Shown piece after piece: positions 1 through 27,606 of a stretch of DNA of 32,000 bases (the stretch's first letter is position 1; every line of letters begins with the position of its first letter). The notes beneath the pieces are model-generated. The model did no database searches and was not told the DNA's origin. It worked only from the letters and a program-made list of their open reading frames with translations. A program made the translations under genes and the position numbers. The stretch spans positions 1 through 32,000 of the forward strand of contig NZ_SJEE01000026.1 of NCBI RefSeq assembly GCF_006937785.1, in the 5' to 3' direction. This DNA comes from Pseudanabaena sp. UWO311 (GTDB lineage Bacteria > Cyanobacteriota > Cyanobacteriia > Pseudanabaenales > Pseudanabaenaceae).

Positions 1-253
1 GGTTAGGGTGGGGTAAATTTTAAATAAAAAATCACATAAGAGTTACGGCTACAGTAAATAAACCTCAAGTTCGGGTCTGATTGTATAATTCCTATGATCC
101 TCAGTGTTCGTATTGCACTTTTTTTGGCGTTTTCAACTTTTCTTATAGTAATCATAGATAAAGATTGATGATTACCCCTATTTTCATTTAGAGATATCTT
201 TGCAATAATCATAGAAATTTAATTACGATCTTTTGTAAATAGATAGACTTAAT

Positions 254-2089: not shown

Positions 2090-2095
2090 GCAAAG

Positions 2096-2227
2096 CCATT
2101 TAAGAATTTATTTAGATCCCCCCCAGCCCCCCTTAAAAAGGGGGGAGAATCAATTCTTCCCCCTTTTTAAGGGGGATTGAGGGAGATCTCTTAGACCTTT
2201 TAACCTTAGAAAGTAATTCTTAAATGG
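2096..2227. repeat. MITE-like nested palindromic element in the ndhF3-ndhD3 spacer
   Basis: 13-bp terminal inverted repeats: ccatttaagaatt (2096-2108) and aattcttaaatgg (2215-2227). They enclose two G/C-clamped hairpins, ccccccttaaaaagggggg (2127-2145) and ccccctttttaaggggg (2159-2175), which are near reverse complements of each other. The end sequences recur at 25595-25626. Confidence 0.7.
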
Positions 2228-2263
2228 TTTCTAAATCTGAATCTCTACTTTAGGAATAACACT

Positions 2264-3787
2264 ATGCTCAGCGCTCTAATTTGGTTGCCTGTGATCGGGG
2301 CATTAGCGATCGCCTTTCTCCCGCAAAGTCAAGTTAAAAAAGGATCGGCAATTGTTGCAACGGCGATCTTAATTCTTGATTTCATCCTTTTGCGACAATT
2401 CGATATCAAGATTTCGGGTTTCCAATTAACAGAAAATTTGCCTTGGCTAGAAAATCTTGGCTTAAACTACAGCCTTGGCGTTGATGGGCTATCTTTACCA
2501 CTAGTGGTTCTAAATGGGTTGCTCACTTGGTTGATCGTTTGTTTTTGCGATCGGCAGATCAAAGAACGCAATACACTCTTTCATGTATTAATGCTCTTGA
2601 TTCATGCTGGTGTAAGTGGCGCAATTCTCTCCACCAATACGCTGCTATTTGTGCTGTTTTATGAAATAGAGTTAATTCCTCTCTATTTAGTCATCGCAGT
2701 TTGGGGTGGCGGACAACGTAGTTACGCGGCGATGAAGTTCTTGATCTTCACTGCTATTTCAGGGATTCTCGTTTTAGTCGGATTCCTAGCTTTAGGATGG
2801 CTATCGGCAAATCCTACGCCAGTTTTTGACTATGCGACATTACAAACTCTTTCGTTACCGATTGAGATTCAAGTCACTCTCCTAGTGGTATTGCTACTAG
2901 GCTTTACGATTAAAGCTCCTTTCGTACCATTCCACACATGGCTACCCGATGCCTATGTAGAATCGACAACCCCAACGGTAATGATGCTCGGAGGCATTGT
3001 TGCTAAATTAGGAACCTACGGTTTGTTTCGCTTTTGTGTCGGTTTATTCCCCGATGCTTGGGCTTTACTATCACCTTGGATTGCAGTTTGGGCAGGCTTA
3101 GGAATTCTCTATGGCGCAATGGTTGCGATCGCGCAAAAGGACATCAAACGCATGGTTGCCTATAGCTCCATCGGTCACATGAGCTACATTCTCCTTGCTG
3201 CTGCTGCTGCCACACCTCTAAGCATGGTCGGCGGGATCATTCAAATGGTAAGTCATGGCTTAGTTCTATCACTGCTGTTCTATTTAGTCGGCGTGATTGA
3301 AGAAAAAGTTGGTACAAGAGATCTCGATGTTCTGAATGGCTTACTTAATCCCATACGCGGTTTGCCTTCTACCAGTGCATTGCTAATCTTAGGTGGTATG
3401 GCAAGCGCGGGTATTCCTGGGCTGATTGGATTCATCTCAGAGTTTCTGATTTTCCAAGGTAGTTTTAGCAAGTTCCCTATCCCCACGATCTTATCGATGA
3501 TCGGTACAGGGCTTACAGCTGTTTATTTCGTAATTCTGCTCAATCGTACTTGCTTTGGTAAATTGGATAATCACACCGCTTACTACCCTAAAGTTTCAGG
3601 TATTGAGCAGTTGCCAGCACTGATTTTGACTGCATTAATTGTGATTTTAGGAGTGCAACCATCTTGGTTAGTGCGTTGGAGTGAAGTAAGTGCCGTTCAG
3701 ATCATCGCTCGTGTTCCTGACACAGCGATTGTAGCTAGTACAAGTCTCATCAATGAAGACAGCAACTCTTTAACTGATCGCAATTAG
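2264..3787 (+). CDS. ndhD3: NAD(P)H-quinone oxidoreductase subunit D, CO2-uptake paralogue (NdhD3)
   Basis: 507-aa polytopic NuoM/NdhD-like ORF (FVPFHTWLPDAYVESTTPTVMMLGG) located between ndhF3 and cupA. Confidence 0.9.
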   Translation: MLSALIWLPVIGALAIAFLPQSQVKKGSAIVATAILILDFILLRQFDIKISGFQLTENLPWLENLGLNYSLGVDGLSLPLVVLNGLLTWLIVCFCDRQIKERNTLFHVLMLLIHAGVSGAILSTNTLLFVLFYEIELIPLYLVIAVWGGGQRSYAAMKFLIFTAISGILVLVGFLALGWLSANPTPVFDYATLQTLSLPIEIQVTLLVVLLLGFTIKAPFVPFHTWLPDAYVESTTPTVMMLGGIVAKLGTYGLFRFCVGLFPDAWALLSPWIAVWAGLGILYGAMVAIAQKDIKRMVAYSSIGHMSYILLAAAAATPLSMVGGIIQMVSHGLVLSLLFYLVGVIEEKVGTRDLDVLNGLLNPIRGLPSTSALLILGGMASAGIPGLIGFISEFLIFQGSFSKFPIPTILSMIGTGLTAVYFVILLNRTCFGKLDNHTAYYPKVSGIEQLPALILTALIVILGVQPSWLVRWSEVSAVQIIARVPDTAIVASTSLINEDSNSLTDRN

Positions 3788-3875
3788 TGCGATTTATGAA
3801 GATGTCGATTTATTAGCAGCAAGTTCAGAAGCAATTTTAGAATCAACCATTTAGATATATAAAAGGTAATCAACG

Positions 3876-5192
3876 ATGACAGCTACTTTAACGGAACCCA
3901 CAACCAAGCTACCGCCTTCCACCCATCCCTACGCAGAAGTCATTCATCGCCTCGAAGCAGGTGGCTCAATGCTGCCAGATACGCCCGAAAATCTCATGCA
4001 GATTATCGGACTTTACAAAGCATATGCTGTACCGATGGACTTCTATTGGCGGGATTTACTATACATAGCTGAACAAGTATTTTTAGAGCCAATTCCTGCC
4101 TTTAAATATTTTCTTCCCCAAGAATATTTAGATTTGCCTAATCACTATGCTGGCGATACTGCTGATTTGCGGTTTTGGCGAGGCGAAGCGACGGCTCATC
4201 CAGAATTATTAGAATTCATGGATAAGGGAGAACTCAAAGCCAAAATTCCCAAGATTTTTCATCATCTCTATCACGATCGCATCAATATGGAGTTTGCGGA
4301 AGAATGTATGCGCGCAATGCTCTGGCATCGAGGCATGGGCGGCGAGTTAGAGCCTTACATGGATTCTGAAGAATATAAGCAGAATGCCGATCGCGCCATT
4401 CGGGCTTTCTTTAAAAATAATCCAGTGATGTTGGGATTATACAAACTTTTTCCTGATATGTTCATGGAGCAATGTCGCCAATCAACCATGACTTCGGTGC
4501 TTGGGCTATTTTGGGAAATCATGGCTCCCGTGTTCTTTGAGATGTCGGATATTTACGATGAAGGTGGCTTTAAGGGCGTGCCTGATGCGATGGATTTCTT
4601 GGTAAATGGCATCTTTGCGATCGCGGGTCGTCCCATTTATCACCGCGTGAAGATTGGCGATGAATGGATTGATATTGTCCCCAAATCCAAGGGATTTACT
4701 TGGCTCTATGAGGCAGCCTTCCCCTATGTCGAGGCAGTGTTTTACCGCACTTCCCCATTCCGTGGTACGAAGTCTTACAATGCTCAAGCTCACGAAGTGC
4801 CTAACGATCAGAATGATTTTCACTTTGGAATTTTGTACGCGGATAAGTTCCCTGTGGGCTCCGCAGGTATTCCGCCCACATTGCTGCATCAAGACATGTA
4901 CCACTTCTTGCCGCAATATCTGATTGACTATTACAAACAACATTGTCGCGGTGAAGATGACATGCTAATTCAGTTAGCTGTCAGTTTTCAGCGATCGATG
5001 TACAACGTGACTTCGGCAGTAATTCAGGCGGGAAGAGCGGCGTTGCTTTATCCCTTAGATGATCCTAATCCTAAACATCTTTTGGCAAATCGTCATTATT
5101 TTGAAGGACAACTGAATCGATTCTGTAATCCTAAATATGGCATGGATAAAGCTGCCAGAATAGGGATGGTTCAGGATCAAAATTATCGGTAG
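3876..5192 (+). CDS. cupA: CO2 hydration protein CupA/ChpY of NDH-1MS
   Basis: 438-aa soluble ORF. The N-terminal HRLEAGGSMLPDTPENLMQIIGLYKAY region is typical of CupA/ChpY, and the gene follows ndhD3. Confidence 0.9.
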   Translation: MTATLTEPTTKLPPSTHPYAEVIHRLEAGGSMLPDTPENLMQIIGLYKAYAVPMDFYWRDLLYIAEQVFLEPIPAFKYFLPQEYLDLPNHYAGDTADLRFWRGEATAHPELLEFMDKGELKAKIPKIFHHLYHDRINMEFAEECMRAMLWHRGMGGELEPYMDSEEYKQNADRAIRAFFKNNPVMLGLYKLFPDMFMEQCRQSTMTSVLGLFWEIMAPVFFEMSDIYDEGGFKGVPDAMDFLVNGIFAIAGRPIYHRVKIGDEWIDIVPKSKGFTWLYEAAFPYVEAVFYRTSPFRGTKSYNAQAHEVPNDQNDFHFGILYADKFPVGSAGIPPTLLHQDMYHFLPQYLIDYYKQHCRGEDDMLIQLAVSFQRSMYNVTSAVIQAGRAALLYPLDDPNPKHLLANRHYFEGQLNRFCNPKYGMDKAARIGMVQDQNYR

Positions 5193-8872: not shown

Positions 8873-9397
8873 ATGGATGCAATTACGACTATTTTTGTGG
8901 CAGCGATCAAAATTATTGTTGATTCTGGAGTATTGAGTAGAGTTAGTGATGGAGCAACGACTAAGATTGGTGAAAATATTACTGATGGGGTTGGTAATAT
9001 TTCACAGAGATTATGGGCAATGCTAAAGCGGAAATCTCCTAACACTGATACGGTAAAGAAACTTGGTAAAGGGCAAGAGATTGATTACCAGCAGGCAGTG
9101 ATTGATGTCGAGGCGATCGCGGATGATCCTGATGTGGTGAAATTATTGGATGAGGTGCGATCGCTTTTGGAAAGTAATCAAGAGCTAGCAGCTAGGGTTG
9201 AAGAGTTGGCGGCACAGGCTATAATTGCGCCTAAAATTGTACAAGTGATGGCTAGTGATATTGAGGGCGTAAACCTTCGAGCAAAATCAATGAAGCAAAC
9301 AGCGCCATCTGGCAGTAGCTCAGTTGAGCAGACGATGCTAAAGAATGTCAAAGTAACGGATGATATCGATTTGGGTGATTTAACTCAGGAGGCTTAG
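8873..9397 (+). CDS. Hypothetical 174-aa protein: hydrophobic N-terminal helix, acidic coiled-coil middle, C-terminal pseudo-repeat motif. First gene of the NLR-like module.
   Basis: ORF begins MDAITTIFVAAIKIIVDSGVL. The middle region reads VVKLLDEVRSLLESNQELAARVEELAAQ, and the tail reads NVKVTDDIDLGDLTQEA. Its stop is 3 nt from the next start codon. Confidence 0.6.
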   Translation: MDAITTIFVAAIKIIVDSGVLSRVSDGATTKIGENITDGVGNISQRLWAMLKRKSPNTDTVKKLGKGQEIDYQQAVIDVEAIADDPDVVKLLDEVRSLLESNQELAARVEELAAQAIIAPKIVQVMASDIEGVNLRAKSMKQTAPSGSSSVEQTMLKNVKVTDDIDLGDLTQEA

Positions 9398-9400
9398 GCG

Positions 9401-9832
9401 ATGGAAGAGTTGTTAGAACTAAAGGGATTTTTGCTCAGTGGCAATATCTCTGATGCTTTGCTGTTGGTGGAGGAGATGACAGAAATGAGCAAAGATGACA
9501 AATTAAATAAAATTTCCAGTTTTGCCAAGATTCTCCTATTGCATTTAATCAAGCGCCAAGCGGAAGGACGAACAACGAGATCGTGGGATGCTTCTATTGA
9601 AAATGCTGTTTATGAAATTCAGAAAACAAATCGTCGCCGTAAAGCAGGAGGGAGCTATCTGACTAAGGAAGAATTGCGGGAAGCAATCAGCGATGCTTAT
9701 CGGGTGGCGATATCAGGTGCGGCGGCTGAGGCTTTTGGTGGTTGTTATACAGTCATACAACTAGCGGCGATGGTCGATTGCGAGGCTATTATTAATCAGG
9801 CGATCGCTTTAATTTTGGGTGAGGCAACATGA
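9401..9832 (+). CDS. DUF29-like helical protein
   Basis: LLLHLIKRQAEGRTTRSWDASIENAVYEIQ resembles the DUF29 core (LL.HLLKWQYQP..RS.SW..TI). It shares an ATGA start/stop overlap with the NB-ARC gene. Confidence 0.5.
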   Translation: MEELLELKGFLLSGNISDALLLVEEMTEMSKDDKLNKISSFAKILLLHLIKRQAEGRTTRSWDASIENAVYEIQKTNRRRKAGGSYLTKEELREAISDAYRVAISGAAAEAFGGCYTVIQLAAMVDCEAIINQAIALILGEAT

Positions 9833-12159
9833 CGACAGATCCGAAAAATCAACAGTCGGCTTTACAAGGTAATGATGTGGCGCGCGACCTCACAATTGGT
9901 AACTTCGCACAGACAATCAACTACAACCAAATTATTCAAGAGGCAAAACTGACGGGGGGCAGCCTGATCAATTTGCCGCAGACTAATGTGACTTTTTTTG
10001 CGGGACGGGATGATGACCTGAAAAAAGTACATGAACTTTTACAGAAAAATCAGAGGGTGGCGGCAGTAGCTTTTGTGAAAGGGATGGGGGGTGTGGGGAA
10101 GTCAGAACTTGCCCTTCAATATTCGCTACGGCATTTTTTGACGGACTATAGCGGTGGAATCTGTTGGTTACGGGCAAATGAGGGGACTTTGCCGACCCAA
10201 TTACAGGATTTTGTACAGATACAGCTTGGGGAAATGATGCCCGATGGGTTAGATAGTGGCGAAAAGTTGGCGGGACATTGCTGGCGGCGGCTTTCGGATC
10301 GCTTGGAGGGGCAGATGTTGGTGGTGTTAGATGATGTGAAAAGTTCTGACGACGTGAATCCATTTTTGCCACCTCAGAATGGAAAGTTTTGGGTGTTGGC
10401 GACGACGCGGTTGGTATTGGGGAAATGGGATCAGCAATACACGTTAGATGTGTTGGTGTTGGCGGCGGCGGTGGATTTACTAAAGTCGTTTTTACCTGAA
10501 GCCGATCCGCGTCGGGGGAATGATGCGGAAATCGAGAGGCTTTGTGAGTGGTTGGGGCGGTTGCCTTTAGCGATCGAGTTGGTGGGGCGGTATTTGGCTT
10601 TGCCGAATCAGTTAGATACTGGTATTTCTGAGATCTTGCAACGCTTGCAAGGAGAATGTATGGTGCAGCTTTCGCAAATTACTGATGAAGAAAGGAAGTT
10701 ATTACCCAAAAATCTAAATGTGGCGGCTTCATTTTTCTTGAGTTGGCAAGAGTTGTCACCCTTGGCTCAACGTTTGGCTTGTATGCTGGGTTTGTTTGCC
10801 TTAGCGCCGATTCCTTGGGAACTAGCTGAAAATGCAGCACTCTTCAAGTTAGAAAATATACAAAGCAGCCGCCTGACTAAATTTATCAATGGTTTAGAAA
10901 ATATACAAAGCAGCCGCCTGACTAAATTTATCAATAAAACCTTGAAAAAAAATAATCCAAAAATAACAAAAGAAGACTTAAAAAAGGCTCGTGGTGAATT
11001 ATTGAATATAAATTTATTGCAAGTAATCTTTCTAGAGGATGTCCATTTTTATCATTTACATCAATTACTACGAGAGTATTTTAAATTTCAATACCAAAAA
11101 CATTCTGAATGGTCAAATATCAAGGATAAATTGATTTGCAGTTTAATTAAGTTTTGCAATAATTTATCTAATAATGAAAACTCATCAAACATTGCTACCA
11201 GTTATTTGAAACCACATTTAGGAATTCTTAAAGACAGAGAGAAAATATTTGATATCTGTAAATCTGATAATGAATTTATAGAAGATGTATTACGTGGATT
11301 TGGTAGCCTTAGAGATTACTATGAGAAGATAGGCTCATATTCTATTGCAGAGGATTGGGGAATTGAAAGCTTAGAGATCAGAAAAAAGTTTTATAGTGAG
11401 CAGCATTCTGATATTGCTCAAGATTGTAGCAAGCTTGCACATATCTACAATATGAATCAAAAATATAATGACGCAGTTGATTATTTTAAGCAAGCTATTC
11501 AAAAATACAAAAAGGCAGGTGAAATGCGTGAAGAGATAAAGAATGTGATCAAGGCTACAAGACTTAACTTTAAGTTAGACATATATTATGAGTTTGATTT
11601 GGAAAAGCACGAAAAAGAAAGTGAGAATTTATCTAATGATAAGCATGATTATGATCTGCGTTATGAAATCAAAGAATTAAGACAAGAAGAAGACAAACAA
11701 GCAAAACAAAAAGAAGAAAAGAGATTAAACTCTGTAAAAGAAGAAATTAAGATAGCTGTTGTTGGTTATCGTAATACTGGCAAAACAAGTTTTATCCGAA
11801 CATTAGTTAGAGACAAAGTTGGAATTGTAGAAGATAAAGCAGGAAGTACTATAGAGCCAGAAGAACACGAATGCTTGACTAATATAAAGCTAGTCGATTG
11901 TCCAGGGTTTATCAGTATTGATCAATACCAATCTTACAGAAGAGAAAAAGAGGAGAAATTACTCTCTAAAAGAGAAATATTAAGCAAAAACAAATGGACA
12001 GAAGAAACAATTGATCTATGCGAAAAAGCAATTAACAAAATAAAAATATCTGACATAGTTATTTATGTTGTCAGTTTAGAAAATCTTCACGATGAGGTAA
12101 CACAAAGAGAGATCGAGGAAATTAAAAATACAAACAAAAAAAATTATAGCTATTATTAA
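9829..12159 (+). CDS. STAND/NLR-like NTPase: NB-ARC module, winged-helix, TPR-like region, then the first half of a TRAFAC-type GTPase domain. The reading frame is interrupted at an A8 run.
   Basis: NB-ARC motifs: GMGGVGKSELA (10081-), LVVLDDV (10318-), WVLATTR, GRLPLAIELVG (about 10554-). GTPase motifs: G1 VGYRNTGKTS (11764-), G2-like GSTIEP, G3 DCPG (11896-11907). Confidence 0.85.
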   Translation: MTTDPKNQQSALQGNDVARDLTIGNFAQTINYNQIIQEAKLTGGSLINLPQTNVTFFAGRDDDLKKVHELLQKNQRVAAVAFVKGMGGVGKSELALQYSLRHFLTDYSGGICWLRANEGTLPTQLQDFVQIQLGEMMPDGLDSGEKLAGHCWRRLSDRLEGQMLVVLDDVKSSDDVNPFLPPQNGKFWVLATTRLVLGKWDQQYTLDVLVLAAAVDLLKSFLPEADPRRGNDAEIERLCEWLGRLPLAIELVGRYLALPNQLDTGISEILQRLQGECMVQLSQITDEERKLLPKNLNVAASFFLSWQELSPLAQRLACMLGLFALAPIPWELAENAALFKLENIQSSRLTKFINGLENIQSSRLTKFINKTLKKNNPKITKEDLKKARGELLNINLLQVIFLEDVHFYHLHQLLREYFKFQYQKHSEWSNIKDKLICSLIKFCNNLSNNENSSNIATSYLKPHLGILKDREKIFDICKSDNEFIEDVLRGFGSLRDYYEKIGSYSIAEDWGIESLEIRKKFYSEQHSDIAQDCSKLAHIYNMNQKYNDAVDYFKQAIQKYKKAGEMREEIKNVIKATRLNFKLDIYYEFDLEKHEKESENLSNDKHDYDLRYEIKELRQEEDKQAKQKEEKRLNSVKEEIKIAVVGYRNTGKTSFIRTLVRDKVGIVEDKAGSTIEPEEHECLTNIKLVDCPGFISIDQYQSYRREKEEKLLSKREILSKNKWTEETIDLCEKAINKIKISDIVIYVVSLENLHDEVTQREIEEIKNTNKKNYSYY
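10859..10945 (+). repeat. In-frame tandem duplication (45-nt period) at a compositional breakpoint
   Basis: A perfect 42-nt copy, ttagaaaatatacaaagcagccgcctgactaaatttatcaat, occurs at 10859-10900 and again at 10904-10945. It encodes LENIQSSRLTKFIN twice. Confidence 0.95.
12136..12143 (+). other. A8 homopolymer at the frame junction of the STAND gene (candidate slippage or indel site)
   Basis: The upstream frame stops at 12157-12159. The +1 frame is open from 12101 to 13036, and the two open frames overlap exactly across this A run. Confidence 0.8.
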
Positions 12160-13036
12160 TCAGTCTAATTCTATATCTTCTGACAAGAAAAATAGAATAC
12201 CCAAGTGGAAGCAATTCTTTAAAGATCAAGATGTCAAATATTATCTCGATTTTGATTGTTTTTGGGATAAACCATCAAAAATAGATTCACTATATTCATT
12301 TGTTTCAGAGAGCTTATCTGGAGATTTTAAAAAGAATCAGTCTTTTGCTTCTGCGCTGGAAATTTATGAAGACAAAAAATTAAAAAAATTAAAAAAAATT
12401 TGTACCGAATTTTCTAGTTGTTTAATTGATTGTAGAAAAATTAAGTTTCAAGTGGCAAATACTGAACAAGAAAGAGAGAACGCTCAAGAAGACTGCTCTA
12501 AAATGGCTTTGTCAATAATAAGAAAGTTTATCGAAGAAACACAAAAAGAATTTGAAATTGCAGTTAACATTAAACACTCAGACATTCAAGAAGTAATCTC
12601 AGCGAATGATTTTAACATCACGCATATTTCTAATGAAGCCGCATCTAAGACTGCAATATTTTCAGGACTTGGCGCTGTAATTGGCAGTGCAGTTCCATTG
12701 GTAGGAACAGCAATAGGAGCAGTAACAGGGTCATTGATAGGAGCAGGGATAGGTTATTTAACAACAAAAGACACAAAAATAGAGGTTAATTTGAGTTCAG
12801 CTAACTTAAACTGTATTTCTAGTTTTTGCTTGGCTTATTTATCCGCTTGTTTATTTTGTGGTTATGCAAAGTATGGTTATAAAATTGAAGATGAATACAG
12901 GAGACAACTAGATTGGCATAAAATAAAGACTTTGCTTAAAAACACAACTAAATATTGCAGTGAAAAAAATAATTTGATTGAATTAAGTGAAGAAGAAATG
13001 GTTACATGGTGTAATGACTTTCTTGTAAAACTTTAA
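12143..13036 (+). CDS. +1-frame continuation of the STAND gene: rest of the GTPase domain (degenerate G4), helical region, glycine-zipper/hydrophobic segment
   Basis: 117 open codons (12101-12451) with no ATG, GTG or TTG lie upstream of the track's GTG start. KKIIAIINQSN falls at the position expected for a G4 (NKxD) motif. The GxxxG-rich segment FSGLGAVIGSAVPLVGTAIGAVTGSLIGAGIGY spans 12653-12760. Confidence 0.7.
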   Translation: MIAIINQSNSISSDKKNRIPKWKQFFKDQDVKYYLDFDCFWDKPSKIDSLYSFVSESLSGDFKKNQSFASALEIYEDKKLKKLKKICTEFSSCLIDCRKIKFQVANTEQERENAQEDCSKMALSIIRKFIEETQKEFEIAVNIKHSDIQEVISANDFNITHISNEAASKTAIFSGLGAVIGSAVPLVGTAIGAVTGSLIGAGIGYLTTKDTKIEVNLSSANLNCISSFCLAYLSACLFCGYAKYGYKIEDEYRRQLDWHKIKTLLKNTTKYCSEKNNLIELSEEEMVTWCNDFLVKL

Positions 13037-13090
13037 AATAATCAAAATAAAATATTTTATTTTCAATCAAACTTTAGTAGCAAGCAAAAA

Positions 13091-13369
13091 ACTTACTCAT
13101 CGCAAGGGAAGTAAAACGAAGCCGAACCTCTCTTTATGCGATCGCTCTCTATCAGGGAACGCCAACTAGGAACAGACCATCCCAATGTCGCCGCCAGTCT
13201 ATTCAACTTAGCCGCCCTCTATCAAAATAAAAATACCCAACGTCATCCCGAAGCCCTGCAATCCATCCAACGCACCATCCAAATTTACGAACGAAAACTT
13301 GGCACTGAGCATCCCAATACTCAAGCAGCACTCAGTTGGCTTCAGGCGATCCGTGAGGCATCTCTATGA
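13091..13369 (+). pseudogene. Remnant 3' end of a KLC-type TPR (TPR_10/12-like) gene with an internal TAA
   Basis: [42 protein letters not shown]...LGTEHPNTQAALSWLQAIREASL. There is an in-frame TAA at 13112-13114 where TPR repeats normally have Tyr. GC content returns to the host level here. Confidence 0.7.
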
Positions 13370-14137
13370 TTGCAACTGACGCACCTGCTCAACTTTTAAG
13401 CCAGTAACCTGAGCAACTTGCTCAATATCCATACCAGACTTCAGCAAATTTAGAGCGATTTCTTGGCGACCCTTTAGCAAGCCTTTTCTTAGTCCTCTTT
13501 GCAAACCCTTTAATTCGCCTTCTCGCAAAGCATCTTTATATACTCTGGTATTTTTTATATCACTGAGTGTAAACATCGCTTCAATCTCCTCGCGGCTTAA
13601 GTTTTTAAATTTGGACACAAGCACAGCTTCGACTAATTCCATAATATCAGGATTTAAGTTTTGCTGCTTCAAACCCTGCACAATTTTCGGCGCATCACTT
13701 TCTGGGCTTGTAATTAACTGAACTATAGCGATCGCCACTGACTCAGACTCACCCAACTCATCGAGATAAATTGGTATTAAACGTTGATTATCAATCAACT
13801 CTTGCTGAAAACTTGATAATTTGGTGGGAGCAACTTGGCGATCGGCAAATATTGCAACTGCCTTCCAATCATTTTCTGGCTCATATTGACTGAGATACAA
13901 TAAAATCTCGCTGAGAAATTCCCAATAGAAATTAGCTTTTTTCTGAAACTGTACCTCTACAAAGTAAATCGGCTTGTCTATCCTATCAGGAGCAAAGATG
14001 CCATCAAATCGAAAAGCCTTCTCTTTCACTTCCACTGAAATAAACTCATATCCCTCTTCAAACGGTTGATTGAGAAGTTCAAACAGCAGCGTATTAAAAG
14101 TTTGAAAGAGTTTATAAAAAATCGTGTCAGTTCGCAT
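13364..14137 (-). CDS. Rpn-family recombination-promoting nuclease / putative transposase (PD-(D/E)XK; cyanobacterial DUF2887/DUF4351 type)
   Basis: MRTDTIFYKLFQTF N-terminus, FDGIFAP...PIYFVEVQFQK nuclease core, and a basic C-terminal tail with GLKVEQVRQL. Confidence 0.75.
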   Translation of the reverse strand: MRTDTIFYKLFQTFNTLLFELLNQPFEEGYEFISVEVKEKAFRFDGIFAPDRIDKPIYFVEVQFQKKANFYWEFLSEILLYLSQYEPENDWKAVAIFADRQVAPTKLSSFQQELIDNQRLIPIYLDELGESESVAIAIVQLITSPESDAPKIVQGLKQQNLNPDIMELVEAVLVSKFKNLSREEIEAMFTLSDIKNTRVYKDALREGELKGLQRGLRKGLLKGRQEIALNLLKSGMDIEQVAQVTGLKVEQVRQLQS

Positions 14138-14300
14138 GAGAAAACAATAAAATAGAAGTTATCATTAGCTGAGCGAAAGCATACTCAGCAAATTCTAGAA
14201 ATCTTTCAGCCGAATCTCGATTTCCCATCGCTAAAATATAATTTGCCTGTCGCCTGATATCTTGGGTTGCGCGATCGCGAACAATTATCGGAAAAGCTAT
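14127..14300 (-). pseudogene. parE: Truncated parE/relE-family toxin remnant
   Basis: (I)AFPIIVRDRATQDIRRQANYILAMGNRDSAERFLEFAEYAFAQL matches the first half of ParE. An ATA codon stands where a start is expected, directly after the parD stop. The reading frame runs into the Rpn gene start after about 45 ParE-like residues. Confidence 0.55.
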
Positions 14301-14305
14301 ACCTG

Positions 14306-14560
14306 CTACAGCTCTGTTCCAAGTACCGACAACCGCAGATCTTGCCAATAAGCTGAAGTTACCAGTTCAGGCTCTGAGTTCAACCCCTCTTGTAACAAAC
14401 TCACTAGTTTTGTCTGAGCCTCCTTCCTCTGACGATCTTGGTTCAGCAAAGACAGAAAATAATCCGCCACAGTATTATAAGTTCCAGACTGAATCTGTCC
14501 TTGAACATAGGACTCAAGTTCCTTTGGTATTGGAAAACTTACATTCATAAACCTTTTCAA
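14306..14560 (-). CDS. parD: ParD-family (RHH) antitoxin
   Basis: YVQGQIQSGTYNTVADYFLSLLNQDRQRKEAQTKLVSLLQEGLNS matches the ParD pattern (SQI.SGRY.SASEVIR.ALRLL...LL.EG..SG). Confidence 0.75.
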   Translation of the reverse strand: MKRFMNVSFPIPKELESYVQGQIQSGTYNTVADYFLSLLNQDRQRKEAQTKLVSLLQEGLNSEPELVTSAYWQDLRLSVLGTEL

Positions 14561-14591
14561 GATGAATTAAAGTACTATCAACGATTTTAGC

Positions 14592-14720
14592 ATTAGTCAA
14601 GAACTAGGATCAGACCATCCGACGACTCAAAATGCGATCATTTGGCTTCAGAGGATCAAGGAAAAGGGTAAAAGGAAAAAATGTGGATTTTTTGAGTTGT
14701 GTTGGTTGATGTTATCTTAG
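14592..14720 (+). pseudogene. Second decayed TPR-gene 3' tail
   Basis: ISQELGSDHPTTQNAIIWLQRIKEKG parallels LGTEHPNTQAALSWLQAIRE at 13300-13360. The nucleotide block tggcttcag.gatc is shared. Confidence 0.45.
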
Positions 14721-14832
14721 GACATAGGATTAGGCTAAAAATATATGTATCAAGTCACACTAAATTACGCCAAAGCAAACCTTGATGAACTATGCGATCG
14801 GGCAGGTCAAGAACCAGAAGGAGTAGCGATCG
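14631..14832 (+). repeat. Direct repeat copy 1 (TPR tail end + spacer + phd 5' end)
   Basis: Shares these blocks with 15217-15398: gttggttgat.tt.tct, acataggatta.gctaaaaata, caaagcaaac.ttgatgaactatgcgat, tagcgatcg. Confidence 0.65.
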
Positions 14833-14996
14833 TTCGTGAAAATCGTAGTTATATTCTGATTACTCAAGAAGAATGGGAATCTCTAATTGAAACTGCGGAA
14901 TTAATGCAACTACCAAACCTGCTCAACCAAGTTGCATCGGCACGCCAAGAATATCAAGCAGGAGAAGCACTCTCTATGGAGCAAGTCTTTGGATGA
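14745..14996 (+). CDS. Phd/YefM-family antitoxin
   Basis: 83 aa. YAKANLDELCDRA...VAIVRENRSYILITQEEWESLIETAELM is a typical Phd/YefM fold signature. Confidence 0.8.
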   Translation: MYQVTLNYAKANLDELCDRAGQEPEGVAIVRENRSYILITQEEWESLIETAELMQLPNLLNQVASARQEYQAGEALSMEQVFG

Positions 14997-15103
14997 AAAT
15001 CTACAGAGTCCTCTTTTCTAAACAAGCTCAAAAAGATATCAGCGAACTCACATCTAAACAAAAAGCGAAACTCCAAGAAATTTTACGAACCCAAAGTCTT
15101 TGA
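14993..15103 (+). pseudogene. Truncated RelE/ParE-family toxin (36 codons)
   Basis: ATGA overlap with the phd stop. MKIYRVLFSKQAQKDISELTSKQKAKLQEIL matches a RelE/ParE N-terminus. There is a stop at 15101-15103, and no recognisable RelE C-terminus appears in any frame downstream. Confidence 0.5.
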
Positions 15104-17585: not shown

Positions 17586-18017
17586 TTAGGAATTCTTGAT
17601 CTTCTCAGCCTCAGCACGGATGCATTCTTCCTGTTCCCGAAGTTCAGGTGTAAATTCATCGCCAAAATCTGCCGCCTCAAAAAGCGGACGAACCTCAATC
17701 TCTGATTCTGATGGCATGGGATTGGGACACCGTTTGACCCATGCGATCGCCTCTTCCATTGACTGTACTTGCCAGAGCCAGTAGCCAGCCACTAGCTCCT
17801 TTGTCTCTGTAAATGGCCCATCGATGACGCTACGATTTGCTCCTGAAAATCTTATCCTCACTCCCTTTGAGCTAGGATGCAGACCCTCACCAGCCAGCAT
17901 AATCCCTGCTTTGACCAATTCTTCGTTGAATTTACCCATGTCAGTAAGCAGTTGTTCGCTGGGCATCACGCCAGCTTCTGAGTCTTTGGTCGCTTTGACC
18001 ATAACCATGACTTTCAT
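17586..18017 (-). CDS. YciI-like / DGPF-domain protein (long form)
   Basis: IDGPFTETKELVAGYWLWQVQSMEEAIAWVKRCP contains the DGPF motif. Confidence 0.8.
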   Translation of the reverse strand: MKVMVMVKATKDSEAGVMPSEQLLTDMGKFNEELVKAGIMLAGEGLHPSSKGVRIRFSGANRSVIDGPFTETKELVAGYWLWQVQSMEEAIAWVKRCPNPMPSESEIEVRPLFEAADFGDEFTPELREQEECIRAEAEKIKNS

Positions 18018-18077
18018 CTTTCAATCTCCTGTTTACTATTGCTATGTAGAGTTAAGAGAGTCTCAACCTTTGCTTTA

Positions 18078-18174
18078 TTCCAAATCAAGAAATGGCATAG
18101 CCATTTCTTGATTTGGAAAACCTTACTGGGTTTAGTTTTTAATTCACAAAAGTGTTGTCACACTTTCGTGAATT
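18078..18174. repeat. Two palindromic hairpins between DGPF genes
   Basis: ttccaaatcaagaaatggc/gccatttcttgatttggaa (18078-18118) and aattcacaaaagtgt/acactttcgtgaatt (18141-18174). The second is a copy of 16268-16301. Confidence 0.8.
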
Positions 18175-18287
18175 GGTATTACTATCTAGTCGAACAGACT
18201 GGCAGGAGATCGACAAGTTGAGCAAATTTTTCTAGAAAAGTTTTTTATAAGCTGATGGGCAATGTTGAGTGCGTATACCTCTAACAA

Positions 18288-18644
18288 CTATTCTGATGGC
18301 AGACCTGACAGCTCTACAATCGGGCGAATTTCAACAGTGCCTTTATATGCTGTGGGAATGCGTTCGGCGATCGCGATCGCTTCGTCGAGATTGGTCGCAT
18401 CGATCAAAAAGTAGCCGCCAAGTTGTTCCCGCGTTTCGGCAAAGGGACCATCGGTCACTAGTCGTTTTCCGTCACGAATCCTCACACTAGTTGCTTTGAC
18501 AACAGATTGCAGAGGTGAAGCGCCCAAGTATTGACCGTTCGCATTCAGATCTTGGGTGAGATGCACTGACTCCGTGTAGCATTGCTCTCTCTCATTTTCT
18601 GTCCATGCGTTTTCGTCACTGTAAATGAGCAACATATATTTCAT
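18288..18644 (-). CDS. YciI-like / DGPF-domain protein
   Basis: MKYMLLIY...VTDGPFAETREQLGGYFLIDATNLDEAIAIAERIP. Confidence 0.8.
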   Translation of the reverse strand: MKYMLLIYSDENAWTENEREQCYTESVHLTQDLNANGQYLGASPLQSVVKATSVRIRDGKRLVTDGPFAETREQLGGYFLIDATNLDEAIAIAERIPTAYKGTVEIRPIVELSGLPSE

Positions 18645-18746
18645 GATTGATCCTCTAGAGCTATGATTATTGCACGGTAATCATAGCTCAATCTATAGCA
18701 TGAGCTACATATATTTCAGGATTGATCGCGAAATATTTGTTGCGAG

Positions 18747-19226
18747 CTAATGATTACGCCGATAATGCGCTGTCATGAACTGCTGCCAGTTGCCATCATC
18801 ACCAAGAATCTGCGATCGCATGATCCGATGGTCATCACTAACAAACTCAATGATGTCCTGATACTTCGCGATCGCACTCTGGCTAAAGTTTAGTCCTTCT
18901 GTATCAAGTGTGAGAATCTTTTCCGACTCATCAAGAGCGCCATTGTAAATCCAGAGATGCGTCATCATTGAGCCGATAAAGTTTCCCACATACCGATTGA
19001 TTCTTGGGTCATAGCCCAACGTCATAATGGTCGTACCACGATTACCATCGGGCATTTCACTCTCACCTTCTGCCACGACCCAAAGTCCGCCAAGCGATCG
19101 GACGATTTCAGTTCCTTGATTCTTCGATGGTGGTTGGTCAGGTCCCATCATACATTCGACTTCCGAAATCCATTCGCCAACGAATTTATCGAGCCATTGA
19201 TGTTCTTTTTGAGGTTCAGCGTCCAT
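18747..19226 (-). CDS. DUF1579-like protein
   Basis: HQWLDKFVGEWISE...LGGLWVVAEGE...TLGYDP...YVGNFIGSMMTHLWIYNG fits the DUF1579 pattern as I remember it. Confidence 0.55.
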   Translation of the reverse strand: MDAEPQKEHQWLDKFVGEWISEVECMMGPDQPPSKNQGTEIVRSLGGLWVVAEGESEMPDGNRGTTIMTLGYDPRINRYVGNFIGSMMTHLWIYNGALDESEKILTLDTEGLNFSQSAIAKYQDIIEFVSDDHRIMRSQILGDDGNWQQFMTAHYRRNH

Positions 19227-19282
19227 ATTTTGCTCCTAAATAGTTAATCAAGATTAGTTAATCAAGTTTTTCAAGCCTTCAC

Positions 19283-19663
19283 TTACAGCTTTCTTGCGGC
19301 AACCATTGCGTTAATCTGCTCATCAGCGCCTCGAATCTCAAAGGCTCCGTTGCGAACTCCAGGGTGTTGGGACATTAACTGGATTGCATGGTTCAGATCT
19401 CTAGCTTCAAGAAAGAGGATACCGCCCAGATGTTCCTTCGTTTCGGCATAGGGACCATCGGTAATCGTAACCTTACCGTTCTGATACCTTAGCGTTGCGG
19501 CATTGCGGATACTTTGGAGAGCTTCGCCACCAACAAAGTGTCCGCCTCGACGTAGCTCGTCGTCATAGGCAAAACATTCCTCCATCAGCGCTGTGCGATC
19601 GCTTTCGGTCATCCAATCCCATTGCGCCTCATCCATATATCCAAGGCATATAAATTTCATCAT
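19283..19663 (-). CDS. YciI-like / DGPF-domain protein
   Basis: [35 protein letters not shown]. Confidence 0.8.
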
Positions 19664-19797
19664 TACCTCCAGAGTGTTATCTCAAATTAGTTGCCTTCAT
19701 CTAGTAGTCGTTCAGTAAAGCTGTAAATCGACAACACGGCAAAATATTTTTACAAAATATCTAGAGGCTTTGCTCCGCAACGCCTCTAGATATTTTG

Positions 19798-21048
19798 TTA
19801 GCTTAGTTCTTGGAGACGTTTTTCGAGAAACCGCCGCTCTGGTTCTTGCTTCACGAGTGCAAGGGCACGTTGGTAGGATTCTCTTGCCTGTGAATTTCTG
19901 CCCAAGCGCCGACAGAGATCGGCTTTTGCGGCATGGGCTAGGTGGTAATCAGCTAAATCACCATTTGATAAGATGCTATCGATCCGTTGCAATCCCGCTA
20001 GAAAGCCATCCCGCATCGCTACTGCCACGGCTCTATTTAGATCGACCACTGGTGATGGCTCTGCTCGCATGAGTAAGTCATACAAGGCGACAATCTGTGC
20101 CCAGTCCGTTGCCTCAGCACTTGTTGCTTCAGAATGTACTGCCGCGATCGCAGCCTGAATTGTGTATGAGCCGAACTGTGAAGATGATAGCGCTTGCCGC
20201 ACAAGTGCCCTGCCTTCCGCAATATATGCTTGGTTCCAGAGCGATCGATCCTGATCTTCTAGAAGGATTAGATCGCCTGTGAGAGATGTACGAGCAGTAC
20301 GTCGCGATTCTTGCATGAGCATCAGTGCTAACAATCCGATCGCTTCGGCATCTGGTAATAGTTCTACTACTAGTCGCCCCAAGCGAATTGCTTCTTCAGA
20401 GAGGTCGGTTCTTGTTAGAGATTCACCTGATGAAGCCGCATATCCTTCATTAAATACTAAATAAATCGTTTGCAGCATCGTATCTATGCGATCTGGCAAC
20501 TCTGCGATCTCTGGCACTTGATAGGGAATTCTTGCATCACGGATCTTTGCTTTAGCTCGGACAATTCGCTGAGCCAATGTAGGGGGCGTGATCAGAAAAG
20601 CGCTAGCAATTTCTTCAGTGGTTAGTCCGCAGACTTCTCTTAGTGTCAAGGCTACTTGTGCTTCTCGTGATAGAGATGGATGGCAGCAGGTGAAGATCAG
20701 GCGCAGGCGATCGTCTTCAACATCCTCATCCGCATCTTCTTTGCCAGAGGTATCACATGTGTCGAAATTTTGAGCGAGTTCTGCTAAGGATGCATCAAAA
20801 CGTGTGCGGCGACGAATGGTATCAATCGCTTTGAATCTCCCCACCGAGACAAGCCACGCTTTAGGATTGGCGGGTATGCCATCGCGGAGCCATTGCTTTA
20901 TAGCCACGGTAAAGGCTTCATGCATTGCCTCTTCTGCAAGGTCAAAATCTCCGATCAAGCGAATCAGGGTGGCGAAAATACTACGCGATTCTTTACGGTA
21001 GATATCATTAACGCGATCGCGGATCTGGCTGGCAATGTTCTCATTCAT
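19798..21048 (-). CDS. ECF sigma factor with a long C-terminal TPR-like extension (ECF42-type)
   Basis: Sigma-70 region 2 (FDLAEEAMHEAFTVAIKQW...NPKAWLVSVGRFKAIDTIRRR) and region 4 (LTLREVCGLTTEEIASAFLITPPTLAQRIVRAKAKI), plus a helical extension of about 200 aa. DGPF genes are adjacent. Confidence 0.8.
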   Translation of the reverse strand: MNENIASQIRDRVNDIYRKESRSIFATLIRLIGDFDLAEEAMHEAFTVAIKQWLRDGIPANPKAWLVSVGRFKAIDTIRRRTRFDASLAELAQNFDTCDTSGKEDADEDVEDDRLRLIFTCCHPSLSREAQVALTLREVCGLTTEEIASAFLITPPTLAQRIVRAKAKIRDARIPYQVPEIAELPDRIDTMLQTIYLVFNEGYAASSGESLTRTDLSEEAIRLGRLVVELLPDAEAIGLLALMLMQESRRTARTSLTGDLILLEDQDRSLWNQAYIAEGRALVRQALSSSQFGSYTIQAAIAAVHSEATSAEATDWAQIVALYDLLMRAEPSPVVDLNRAVAVAMRDGFLAGLQRIDSILSNGDLADYHLAHAAKADLCRRLGRNSQARESYQRALALVKQEPERRFLEKRLQELS

Positions 21049-21547
21049 GGAGCGTGATTGTAATTGCTGCTGATGCTAAAAGTGCTGATATAGTCCGAAT
21101 ATGGTTCCACATTGTCCAATTGGTAAGATAGTTAGCCCATAGACTCGCACCGTTAGCACTATCTGGATCGGCGATCGCTAGCGCATCATTTAGAGGCACA
21201 TTGCAGAGGATTGTCACACCCAATGTACCAACAAGATAGAACAGACTCCCGATGAGCAGGTAAACTGCATGGGGTTGATACCAATTTAACAGCGAAGATC
21301 CAGCCAGAAAGACACAAGCCGCAGCCGTTCCTAAAAATATACCTATAAATAACGGATTGATCGCCTTAATATTTATCGATTGCATAGCGGTAATGCCTTG
21401 CTTTGGTTGGAGTCGGGCAAGAGCATTCATTACAAAAGTTGAGAAAGCGAAGAAGACTCCAGCCATCAGCCCACAGCCCAATGCGGAGAAAAGCTTCAAG
21501 GCGAAATCATGTTGTTGAATGAATTGCAGCATTGTCCTACGTTCCAA
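21041..21547 (-). CDS. DUF1772 (anthrone-oxygenase-like) membrane protein
   Basis: 168-aa ORF with four hydrophobic segments. It overlaps the sigma factor start by 8 nt. Confidence 0.6.
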   Translation of the reverse strand: MERRTMLQFIQQHDFALKLFSALGCGLMAGVFFAFSTFVMNALARLQPKQGITAMQSINIKAINPLFIGIFLGTAAACVFLAGSSLLNWYQPHAVYLLIGSLFYLVGTLGVTILCNVPLNDALAIADPDSANGASLWANYLTNWTMWNHIRTISALLASAAITITLHE

Positions 21548-25594: not shown

Positions 25595-25626
25595 CCATTT
25601 AAGAATTGCTTTCTATGGTTTCTAAA
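25595..25626. repeat. Collapsed (solo-ends) copy of the 2096-2227 element
   Basis: ccatttaagaatt (25595-25607) is identical to 2096-2108. atggtttctaaa (25615-25626) is identical to 2224-2235. The two are joined here by only 7 nt. Confidence 0.55.
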
Positions 25627-27355: not shown

Positions 27356-27606
27356 ATTGATTCCTCACCGACAGCCAAAAAGTTAGTATATTTCAGTCTC
27401 AATTACGCGATGTGCAACTAAAAGTCTGAAAGCCCTGATTTCTCATACTGCACTGATAAGCAGTTTACACTTCAGGTAGCTCAAACAACCTAAGAGAAAT
27501 GGCTCAAAATATAGTTATCGCGTCTTAATTTGGATATTTTTGAAAAATCATAGTATAAAATTATCTTATTAAATCCCAGTCAAATTTTGGTGTGTGGTTG
27601 AAGATT

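Follow-up and report, generated by a model that had tools for sequence, protein, structure and literature searches.

Our results support the conclusion that two annotated ORFs in a 32,000-nt stretch of Pseudanabaena DNA (the window) are one gene, split by a single-nucleotide indel in an A-run inside its GTPase domain. The GTPase part of this STAND gene sits on a foreign AT-rich cassette that took the place of the original TPR array, a chimera that the earlier note on this DNA overlooked. The cassette has replaced the native sequence and the tail of the original gene remains downstream as an orphan. Coordinates are collected in Table 1.

Table 1. Features of the chimeric STAND locus, in order of position in the window
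Feature	Position	Strand	Basis or remark
Two small conserved upstream genes	8873-9832	+	174-aa gene without assigned function; 143-aa DUF29 gene; same order in L002
Native 5' part of STAND gene	9829-10818	+	NB-ARC P-loop, ARC1, winged-helix start
Upstream ORF as it stands	9829-12159	+	776 aa, C-terminal end ...NTNKKNYSYY; database entry P0001, 1 member/1 contig
Walker A GMGGVGKS (aa 85-92)	10081-10104	+	motif
Walker B LVVLDD (aa 164-169)	10318-10335	+	motif
GRLPLAI (GxP motif)	10555-10575	+	native part
AT-rich replacement cassette	10819-13092	+	2274 bp, 30% GC; L002-L004 align at flanks only
Perfect in-frame tandem duplication	10849-10935	+	45-bp period; 42-nt copies 10849-10890 and 10894-10935, 100% identity
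Winged-helix end YHLHQLLREY	11050-11079	+	co-linear with YELHQLLREY of orthologues
About 1.5 TPR repeats	11305-11508	+	TPR_12 25.8 bits vs 30.1 cut-off
GTPase (G) domain, interrupted	11740-12280	+	Pfam MMR_HSR1 near-full profile only when repaired; family alignment; AF2 model
G1 GYRNTGKT	11764-11787	+	motif
G3 DCPG	11896-11907	+	motif
A8 homopolymer, frame-break site	12136-12143	+	A7 form gapless vs 32 homologues; A10 one residue extra
Strand and G4 IIAIINQS	12142-12166	+	in +1 frame
Continuation of same gene in +1 frame	12144-13036	+	encodes G4, helical stalk, glycine-zipper hairpin, conserved C-terminus
Family motif FDCFWDKPSK	12251-12280	+	
Glycine-zipper hairpin	12659-12760	+	+1 frame; Gly-zipper Pfam matches under curated cut-offs
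Conserved C-terminus ...WCNDFLVKL	12998-13033	+	part of +1-frame continuation
Cassette's own stop codon	13034-13036	+	
Orphan remnant of original gene	13093-13369	+	last TPR_10/12 repeats and C-terminus; Pfam TPR_12 E 5e-12, TPR_10 E 7e-10
DUF2887 / Rpn-family recombination-promoting nuclease gene	13364-14137	-	Pfam DUF2887 E 1.3e-60, NCBIfam Rpn family E 1.9e-19

Frame break and homologues

The frame that opens at 9829 ends with a TAA at 12157-12159, 14 nt past the A8 homopolymer (acAAAAAAAAtt) at which the frame is broken. The 776-aa ORF is therefore cut after G3 and is without G4, G5, the stalk and the membrane hairpin. The +1 frame is stop-free from 12101 to 13036 (312 codons), and its first ATG, GTG or TTG is the GTG at 12452, with only ATA, ATT and CTG before it. 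Both readings had been given in the earlier note and are borne out by the sequence. The annotated 194-aa ORF (GTG 12452-13036, P0005) is merely the tail of this continuation. When one A is removed, the junction reads ...EEIKNTNKKIIAIINQSNSISSDKK... and the repaired gene encodes 1068 aa, in which NB-ARC is followed by a short TPR region, an MMR_HSR1 GTPase and a glycine-zipper tail; either A7 or A10 would join both halves in one frame. That such a long open frame is unlikely by chance, as the note had argued, was confirmed by shuffling the sequence from 12101 to 12451, which was stop-free over 117 codons in 0 of 20,000 shuffles. The remaining two frames of 12101-13036 contain 25 and 38 stops per 311 codons.

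Alignment of 32 homologues across the junction revealed no gap, and the A7 form matches the spacing of the family exactly; therefore, the break between G3 and G4 interrupts a single gene. P0002, P0006, P0007 and the other best full-length homologues are 27-35% identical and likewise gapless over the junction, and all 38 of the metagenome loci examined have a single ORF of ~440-500 aa. Thus, a split layout, sought in the 32 aligned homologues and the 38 metagenome loci, was found in none of them. Pfam MMR_HSR1 matches aa 641-777 of the repaired protein over profile positions 1-112 of 113 (E 3.8e-14), spanning the junction, while the match to the upstream ORF alone ends at profile position 104. 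In an AlphaFold model, the junction is the start of strand 135-140, whose end is the G4 asparagine. The gene was ancestrally one ORF, and its break lies between G3 and the G4 strand of the fold, as the note had proposed for a single STAND-linked gene cut by a 1-nt A-run indel.

Downstream of the break, 16 of 19 highly conserved family columns are retained, compared to 20 of 26 upstream, and the C-half/N-half identity ratio of 0.72 is at the top of the family range. Because conservation does not fall off downstream, the break is a very recent mutation, an artefact or a site that is bypassed. A gene that is intact, or whose break is bypassed, would show this complete absence of decay just as well as a very recent mutation would.

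GTPase module

Motifs, profile and fold together assign the module to the TRAFAC GTPases, MMR_HSR1 type. The MMR_HSR1 score is 53.2 bits against a cut-off of 21.9, and both G1 and G3 of a TRAFAC GTPase are present. The canonical G4 NKxD is absent: the sequence here is N-Q-S-N, and the family throughout has N-[K/Q]-x-x and lacks the Asp. The earlier note had thus placed G4 correctly, with N-Q-S exactly in the G4 column, but the NKxD it expected there was wrong, since G4 of this GTPase family is N-[K/Q]. Nor does one uninterrupted frame run from G1 to G5, given the break at A8 between G3 and G4.

The AF2 model of the GTPase has a pLDDT of 82 and a pTM of 0.80. A fold search with it returned the G domains of Era, EngA, MnmE and EngB, a similarity at the level of the G domain only (TM <=0.34). 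The module has ~180 distant homologues or representatives, some of them fused to EAD11, SIR2, CHAT or kinase domains. No match to DUF3482 (PF11981) was seen on the window protein at E up to 0.1, and the link to DUF3482 comes only via homologues, P0002 (25.4 bits, below the cut-off) and P0003 (254 bits). The sole PADLOC match on the locus was of the GTPase region to LeoBC, and it was partial (profile positions 17-194 of 601, E 5e-11). The earlier note's label of a 'costly defence gene' finds no support in these results. Membership in Eleos was rejected, given this partial match and neighbours that consist of a 174-aa gene, a DUF29 gene and an Rpn-like gene.

Chimeric gene and its neighbours

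The N-terminal part of the protein is that of an NB-ARC STAND NTPase, with a Pfam NB-ARC match of 38.4 bits (E 1.1e-9; cut-off 23.5) and an NCBIfam FxSxx_TPR match over aa 56-340 (E 7e-28). The ARC and winged-helix elements are both present, GRLPLAI in the native part and YHLHQLLREY in the cassette. The native part is 84% identical in DNA to Pseudanabaena L002 up to 10818, where DNA homology to the orthologues ends; it returns at ~13093 with the last TPR. Between these points the DNA has no similarity to L002-L004, all of which align at both flanks, although at the protein level the first ~60 aa of the cassette product are still co-linear with the orthologues. Over the cassette, GC drops from ~0.48 to 0.27-0.30 and recovers at ~13100, and GC3 is 0.22-0.25 compared to 0.52 in the native part. 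No HIP1 site occurs from 9800 to 13138, versus 41 in the entire window.

The cassette holds the winged-helix end, ~1.5 TPR, a coiled-coil linker, the GTPase, the helical stalk and the glycine zipper. It brings its own stop codon, followed by 56 nt of 3' flank, and it displaces ~1.2 kb of a canonical NB-ARC-TPR gene known from three Pseudanabaena genomes. Just within its left edge, the tandem duplication adds 15 aa (LENIQSSRLTKFING/K); without it, APIPW and ARGELLN are 40 aa apart, as in L002. This perfect 45-bp duplication is a second slippage-type mutation in the same cassette. The orphan remnant matches the 3' end of the gene for the 829-aa orthologue (L002 12182-12428) with 86% identity, and it carries a TAA (13115-13117) in place of the orthologues' Tyr (TAC).

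Upstream, the DUF29 gene overlaps the STAND start (ATGA). The DUF2887/Rpn gene adjoins the orphan tail and is missing at the orthologous loci, where 13356-14156 has no counterpart in L002-L004. The other genes checked in the 32-kb window gave near-full-length domain matches, and therefore the assembly is not riddled with indels. No second copy or close relative of the sequence was found in JGI metagenomes, plasmids or phages, and the protein cluster consists of a single member from a single contig.

Origin of the break

We give about an even chance to an account in which the STAND gene captured the cassette by recombination and was then broken accidentally, and not in a programmed manner, by replication slippage from A7 to A8. 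A Pseudanabaena-type NB-ARC-TPR gene exchanged most of its winged-helix end and TPR array for the foreign AT-rich cassette. The donor may have been a related STAND gene with a C-terminal TRAFAC GTPase, helical stalk and glycine-zipper membrane hairpin, the GTPase being a putative distant relative of the DUF3482-type GTPases. The old last TPR was left stranded past the cassette's own stop. Later, replication slippage would have inserted one A at 12136-12143, with loss of the frame between G3 and G4. We consider this step very recent because the 298 codons downstream are still stop-free and are conserved like the upstream part. The chromosome would now code for the 776-aa product without G4, G5, stalk or hairpin, and the remainder would have no usable start before the GTG at 12452. 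RNA polymerase slippage might occasionally produce A7 or A10 transcripts and a little full-length protein, as an incidental rather than a designed outcome. The sequence comparisons show the single ancestral ORF, the place of the break in the fold, the cassette replacement and the orphan tail, whereas the direction of the change, the presence of the extra A in the DNA as opposed to a fault of assembly, and any protein function are inferred.

The earlier note had left four causes standing side by side. A recent mutation or a sequencing indel is now favoured, while a switch or recoding has lost ground: the shift is in no homologue, there is no RNA structure, and A8 is not enriched. The break has the appearance of an ordinary mutation of very recent date or of a sequencing error, not of a programmed signal. 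If it were an error of sequencing or assembly, the organism would have A7 (or A10) and an intact 1068-aa NB-ARC-TPR-GTPase gene, and the two ORFs would reflect a homopolymer miscall. This is possible, though clearly less probable than slippage after capture. The break sits exactly in a homopolymer, the half downstream shows no decay at all, and the A7 form is perfect in the family alignment; moreover, the source is a draft contig (longest contig 71.5 kb) and the sequence is known from one contig only, leaving no second copy for comparison. However, every other checked gene in the window is intact, even though the counted ORFs hold 25 six-base and 6 seven-base homopolymer runs, and two further A8 runs of the cassette are in frame. 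In addition, consensus errors at an 8-mer homopolymer are uncommon in Illumina-based assemblies, which would weigh against a miscall if this assembly is one. That the two ORFs are instead genuine genes, one for a STAND protein of 776 aa and the other for a glycine-zipper membrane protein of 194 aa with a start of its own at GTG 12452, is hardly credible. Although the record is annotated in this way (P0001, P0005) and the 194-aa product would keep the membrane hairpin, the 117 stop-free codons before the GTG match the G4-to-stalk region of the family residue for residue, none of the homologues is split, and the region has no more promoter-like sites than the background.

A phase-variable switch, in which slipped-strand mispairing changes the A tract at high frequency and turns a potentially harmful STAND-GTPase ON (A7/A10) or OFF (A8/A9) in part of the population or in individual cells of a filament, seems unlikely. 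The tract does lie within the coding region of a locus that is otherwise a rearrangement hot spot, a 1-nt change suffices for reversion, and the rest of the gene is perfectly kept despite the OFF state. Yet eight A's make a short contingency tract, the site carries no such tract in any homologue, and chance alone predicts A-runs of this size in DNA with 41% A: the cassette contains 3 runs of at least 8 A versus 1.09 expected from shuffles (P ~0.1), which is not significantly enriched, and the other two (10945-10952 and 12391-12398) are both in frame. To our knowledge, no homopolymer contingency switch has been established in cyanobacteria. Programmed recoding would yield full-length protein from A8 by RNA polymerase slippage (A7/A10) or by a +1/-2 ribosomal slip on A-AAA-AAA-A, with the full-length product kept at a fixed low ratio to the truncated one, and we regard it as very improbable. 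The 0-frame stop follows closely after A8 and the downstream part is without a start codon. In addition, A8, while shorter than the 9-nt slippage threshold typical of most bacteria, appears to be slippage-competent and is probably productive for transcriptional slippage in Nostoc IS elements (Baranov et al. 2005, PMC1088944). But programmed sites are conserved, and this site is missing in 32/32 aligned homologues, which are distant, and in 38/38 metagenome loci; neither a conserved A-run nor a two-frame layout was seen in either set. Folding of 12100-12240 gave no stimulatory RNA structure (z 0.25), the break region has no Rfam match, and no SD-like element is present. Furthermore, the truncated product stops in the middle of the G domain, without a plausible separate function, and the cassette is a recent foreign import.

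A further reading, which we consider a long shot, is that A8 acts as a reversible gate through slippage of DNA and/or RNA polymerase, so that the captured STAND-membrane-GTPase module is mostly OFF and rare cells of the filament make the 1068-aa protein. If true, bacterial NLR-like genes would swap C-terminal modules as Rhs/CDI toxins do, with a homopolymer switch taming the new module.

Significance and comparison with known systems

The two ORFs are one disrupted gene, and therefore the annotation should be corrected. By itself, the frame break has little weight beyond this correction and a site for a read check. The locus as a whole is a clean, datable case of an NB-ARC (NLR-like) gene whose sensor end was swapped for a foreign module, with the displaced tail still present. 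It also connects a small GTPase family of ~180 representatives, with no assigned function, to STAND-type conflict systems, and would offer a handle on the role of the GTPase module if the gene is intact or switchable. The NB-ARC-TPR-GTPase-glycine-zipper architecture was found nowhere else among 1.84 billion cluster representatives (one per 50%-identity cluster of ~15 billion proteins).

Among the closest known systems are the cyanobacterial NB-ARC-TPR STAND NTPases (AP-ATPase clade; Kaur et al. 2020, PMC7159879). Identity to L002, L003 and L004 is 68-84% over the N-terminal 330 aa. The Walker A, Walker B, GxP and winged-helix motifs of these three also occur here, and the loci share the upstream DUF29 gene, the downstream neighbours and the last TPR, which is the orphan here. 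These Pseudanabaena orthologues (829, 756 and 774 aa; the 829-aa protein is L002) are plain NB-ARC-TPR proteins with 6-7 TPR_10/12 repeats and nothing more. In contrast, the window gene has exchanged all but ~1.5 repeats for the GTPase, stalk and glycine zipper on AT-rich DNA, and none of its 120 closest NB-ARC relatives has a GTPase domain.

As in MMR_HSR1 + DUF3482-type GTPases such as Marinomonas P0003, the G domain in the second half is followed by a helical stalk, a Gly/Ala-rich hydrophobic hairpin and C-terminal helices. The G4 N-[K/Q] and FDxxWDxPSK motifs are also shared with this type, including its conflict-system fusions with EAD11, SIR2, CHAT and protein kinase. P0007, a cyanobacterial relative, similarly has TPRs before the GTPase and a STAND-like ATPase gene directly upstream. 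The window protein differs in that identity is just 18-35%, the Pfam DUF3482 match is missing and the gene is frameshifted. A direct NB-ARC fusion was seen in no other member of the GTPase family among the same cluster representatives. With the Eleos (LeoA/LeoBC) dynamin-like defence GTPases it shares the LeoBC profile match, and a functional analogy, that of a large GTPase associated with the membrane, is plausible, but the match is only partial and no LeoA partner is nearby.

Like poly-A frameshift pseudogenes, which can be partly rescued by transcriptional slippage (Baranov et al. 2005, PMC1088944; Atkins et al. 2016, PMC5009743), the gene is an otherwise intact ORF broken by a 1-nt A-run change, in a run at the lower edge of slippage-prone length. 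In the well-documented functional cases of slippage (Thermus dnaX, Shigella mxiE, IS elements), conservation extends across relatives, whereas the A8 break here is not conserved. Displacement of C-terminal cassettes is known in polymorphic toxin loci (Zhang et al. 2012, PMC3482391), and the 'orphan' modules of Rhs/CdiA show the same layout: a conserved 5' part, an abrupt foreign 3' module with its own stop, and a displaced, promoterless 3' end downstream. Unlike Rhs/CdiA, the window gene encodes a cytoplasmic STAND NTPase and not a secreted toxin, is without an immunity gene, and is followed by a single displaced remnant.

The upstream frame and the downstream +1 frame are one gene

Re-reading of the sequence bore out what the earlier note had described: an A8 run, a stop codon shortly past it, and an open +1 frame that lacks an early start. 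In this frame no ATG, GTG or TTG occurs from 12101 until the GTG at 12452, and a 117-codon stop-free stretch arose in 0 of 20000 shuffles of 12101-12451. Because of this, and because the remaining two frames of 12101-13036 contain 25 and 38 stops per 311 codons, the open +1 frame is not a product of chance. Deletion of one A yields a protein of 1068 aa (the repaired protein). The predicted junction peptide of a trans-frame or A7 product is ...NTNKKIIAIINQSNSISSDK, and the +1 frame of 12144-12451 would encode the peptides IIAIINQSNSISSDK and IPKWK/QFFK.

Features of the STAND-GTPase gene, its repaired protein and other loci in the window
Feature	Position	Remark
776-aa ORF	9829-12159
A8 run	12136-12143
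TAA stop of the 776-aa ORF	12157-12159	14 nt past the A8 run
Open +1 frame	12101-13036	312 codons
Annotated 194-aa ORF	12452-13036	GTG start
Native 5' part	9829-10818
AT-rich cassette	10819-13092	2274 bp
Tandem duplication	10849-10935	45 bp, perfect, in frame
Stop codon of the cassette	13034-13036
Orphan 3' end	13093-13369
DUF2887/Rpn-family gene	13364-14137	minus strand
NB-ARC	aa 61-279	Pfam
One TPR_10/12 unit	aa about 493-563	Pfam, under curated cut-off
MMR_HSR1 GTPase domain	aa 641-777	Pfam, E 3.8e-14
Glycine zipper	aa 936-980	weak Pfam matches
CO2-uptake cluster	254-5192
YCII/sigma factor cluster	17586-21547	minus strand
TpsB gene	25622-27355	minus strand
Large open frame	27559-32000	plus strand, at least 1480 aa, runs past window end

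The MMR_HSR1 match extends over profile positions 1-112 of 113, across the junction, the point at which the frame breaks (aa 771/772 of the repaired protein); with the upstream ORF alone it stops at profile position 104. The N-terminal 340 aa group with NB-ARC/TPR proteins (NCBIfam FxSxx_TPR, E 7e-28).

With the repaired GTPase-to-C-terminus segment as query, a word-indexed search returned a stand-alone homologue of 489 aa (P0002; 27% identity, 92% coverage) as well as P0003, a DUF3482 protein from Marinomonas; both align without interruption across the junction. Among 1.84 billion cluster representatives, an exhaustive HMMER search identified 180 relatives (E up to 1e-3). Almost all are 440-490 aa long and have a single matching stretch across query position 134/135, the site of the junction. 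All 38 metagenome loci examined hold a single ORF of about 440-500 aa, and the two with a shorter ORF both reach a contig end. When the segment was aligned with 32 relatives using MAFFT, the junction was free of gaps. The A7 version (...REIEEIKNTNKKIIAIINQS...) matches the family spacing, E-[IL]-x-x-[IV]-(6 aa)-[IV][IV]-x-[IV]-x-N-[KQ], exactly, while an A10 version is one residue longer; a change from A7 to A8 is therefore the simplest history.

A confident AlphaFold2 model built from a 28-sequence alignment (pLDDT 82, pTM 0.80) places the junction where strand 135-140 begins; this strand has the near-invariant G4 asparagine at its end. The earlier note had thus placed G4 correctly, but the NKxD motif it expected there is not that of the family, which in the alignment reads N-[K/Q] and lacks the Asp. 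Homologues, Pfam, alignment and model all support its core reading of one STAND-linked gene whose GTPase domain is split by a 1-nt indel in the A-run. We conclude that the upstream ORF and the downstream +1 frame are one gene.

The gene is a chimera

The chimeric nature of the gene was overlooked in the first reading. Between about 10850 and 13100, GC content falls from about 0.48 to 0.27-0.30, and it recovers beyond; the AT-rich part has a GC3 of 0.22-0.25, compared with 0.52 for the native 5' part. The cyanobacterial HIP1 octamer (GCGATCGC) is present in 41 copies in the window, about one per 780 bp, with zero sites in the 3.3 kb from 9800 to 13138, a gap that spans both the native NB-ARC part and the foreign cassette.

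In a scan of one genome per species, three Pseudanabaena loci (L002, L003 and L004) showed 68-84% identity to the N-terminal 345 aa. The orthologues at these loci (829, 756 and 774 aa) are plain NB-ARC proteins with 6-7 TPR_10/12 repeats, encoded by genes of normal GC that lack the GTPase. By blastn, window positions 9070-10818 correspond to L002 9242-10987 (84%), 13103-13355 to 12182-12428 (86%; last TPR and C-terminus), and 14157-15084 to 12705-13637 (94%). Both cassette junctions are sharp: on the left, homology stops directly past ...GATTCCTTGG (10818), and on the right it restarts at about 13093-13104, within a TPR unit. Thus, about 1.2 kb of ancestral sequence has given way to the AT-rich DNA. 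The cassette contributes its own stop codon, and the old 3' end is stranded as an orphan. Within the orphan TPR remnant, a TAA at 13115-13117 replaces the TAC found in all orthologous TPR units (Tyr, ...SQGKYSEAEPL...), indicating that the displaced tail is already in decay.

Over its first ~60 aa, the cassette remains co-linear with the orthologues at the protein level (ARGELLN...LHQLLREYFxFQ), and the donor was therefore a related STAND gene of AT-rich background that already contained the GTPase module. Neither this donor nor any other NB-ARC and GTPase fusion of this type was found in the databases searched. Misassembly is an unlikely source of the cassette: the two junctions return, in the correct order, to a single gene, the left one keeps the reading frame and protein-level co-linearity, its 40-aa spacing being that of L002, and two chimeric joins between 30% GC and 48% GC DNA would be required.

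Just inside the left edge lies a tandem duplication of 15 aa (LENIQSSRLTKFIN), without which the APIPW...ARGELLN spacing equals that of L002; it is the gene's second recent mutation of the slippage type. The orphan tail is adjoined by a gene for a DUF2887/Rpn-family recombination-promoting nuclease, which is absent from all three orthologous loci and also takes the place of the last few codons of the ancestral gene. This gene might be connected with the rearrangements. We conclude that the STAND-GTPase locus is a rearrangement hot spot.

Other loci in the window

Two Proton_antipo_M family subunit genes (one also with Proton_antipo_N) and a ChpXY CO2-hydration protein gene form a cyanobacterial NDH-1 CO2-uptake cluster, confirming a chromosomal cyanobacterial context. 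On the minus strand, three YCII-domain genes cluster with a DUF1579 gene, an anthrone-oxygenase-like gene and the gene for an ECF-type sigma factor that has DUF6596 and TPR domains. A gene for a ShlB/FhaC-type (TpsB) outer-membrane transporter lies beside a large divergent open frame, whose part at the window end finishes in ...HPYFWSSFVL; together they are probably a two-partner-secretion or large exoprotein locus. Many short minus-strand ORFs here are shadows of the large frame.

Cause of the frame break

In a decay test, the window kept 16 of the 19 highly conserved columns after the junction versus 20 of 26 before it, and its ratio of C-half to N-half identity (0.72) is at the top of the family range. 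On this basis an old pseudogene is rejected, which leaves a very recent break, one that is not real, or one that is bypassed. To the first of these, in which a recently formed chimeric gene would then have undergone a recent, non-programmed A7-to-A8 insertion, we give about an even chance. An assembly error through a homopolymer miscall is possible but rather unlikely. No record matched the exact product, the 776-aa product is the sole member of its 90%-identity cluster, no relative of the cassette protein appeared in a JGI metagenome scan, and tblastn against plasmids and phages gave no match. With the sequence present once in the collections, its run length has no comparison anywhere, which leaves room for a miscall; however, the remaining genes checked in the window have full-length domain matches, and the ORFs counted hold 25 six-base and 6 seven-base homopolymer runs.

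Phase variation at the run seems improbable, and programmed recoding more so. Against a programmed event, none of the 32 aligned homologues has a frameshift or an A-run at the junction, RNA folding revealed no stimulatory structure around the break site (z 0.25), and Rfam had no matches across the whole window. This DNA is 41% A, and runs of at least eight A's show no significant enrichment in it (3 seen versus 1.09 expected, P about 0.1); the other two A8 runs, at 10945-10952 and 12391-12398, lie in frame. Baranov et al. 2005 (PMC1088944) place the usual onset of selection against A/T runs at 9 nt but report that Nostoc IS elements seem to use A8, which makes some incidental rescue by A7 or A10 transcripts plausible. 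That the two ORFs are two genuine genes is hardly credible; promoter and terminator scans gave background level, and an internal promoter for the 194-aa ORF is unsupported.

The frameshift itself is an ordinary event. Of more interest are the cassette replacement with its orphan tail and the unique NB-ARC-TPR-GTPase architecture, a single instance that is currently broken.

Relatives of the GTPase module

A cyanobacterial relative, P0007, is the product of a 768-aa TPR-GTPase-glycine-zipper gene in which the TPRs precede the GTPase. It lies on a metagenome contig (L005) with 10 HIP1 sites, where, within 198-3800, a 430-aa STAND/KAP-like ATPase gene stops 3 nt before the GTG start of the 768-aa gene; the two are possibly a split or fused pair. 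This contig was rejected as a donor model because the ATPase is not homologous to the window's NB-ARC, and it therefore represents an independent association of STAND, TPR and GTPase.

A PDB fold search with the AlphaFold2 model returned generic TRAFAC G-domain matches (Era, EngA, MnmE, EngB) and low-TM alignments to EHD, IRG and GIMAP proteins, with no solved structure of the whole architecture. PADLOC reported a partial LeoBC match on the G domain and nothing more, and membership of the Eleos system was rejected. Most relatives of the module are stand-alone, and in some a fusion to EAD11, SIR2_2, CHAT, a protein kinase or DUF2868 occurs. Partners of this kind are typical of NTP-dependent conflict systems, for which AIG/GIMAP-septin-like GTPase effectors have also been mentioned (Kaur et al., PMC7159879, PMC8195603). 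It is reasonable to regard the module as a putative membrane-acting GTPase effector or switch.
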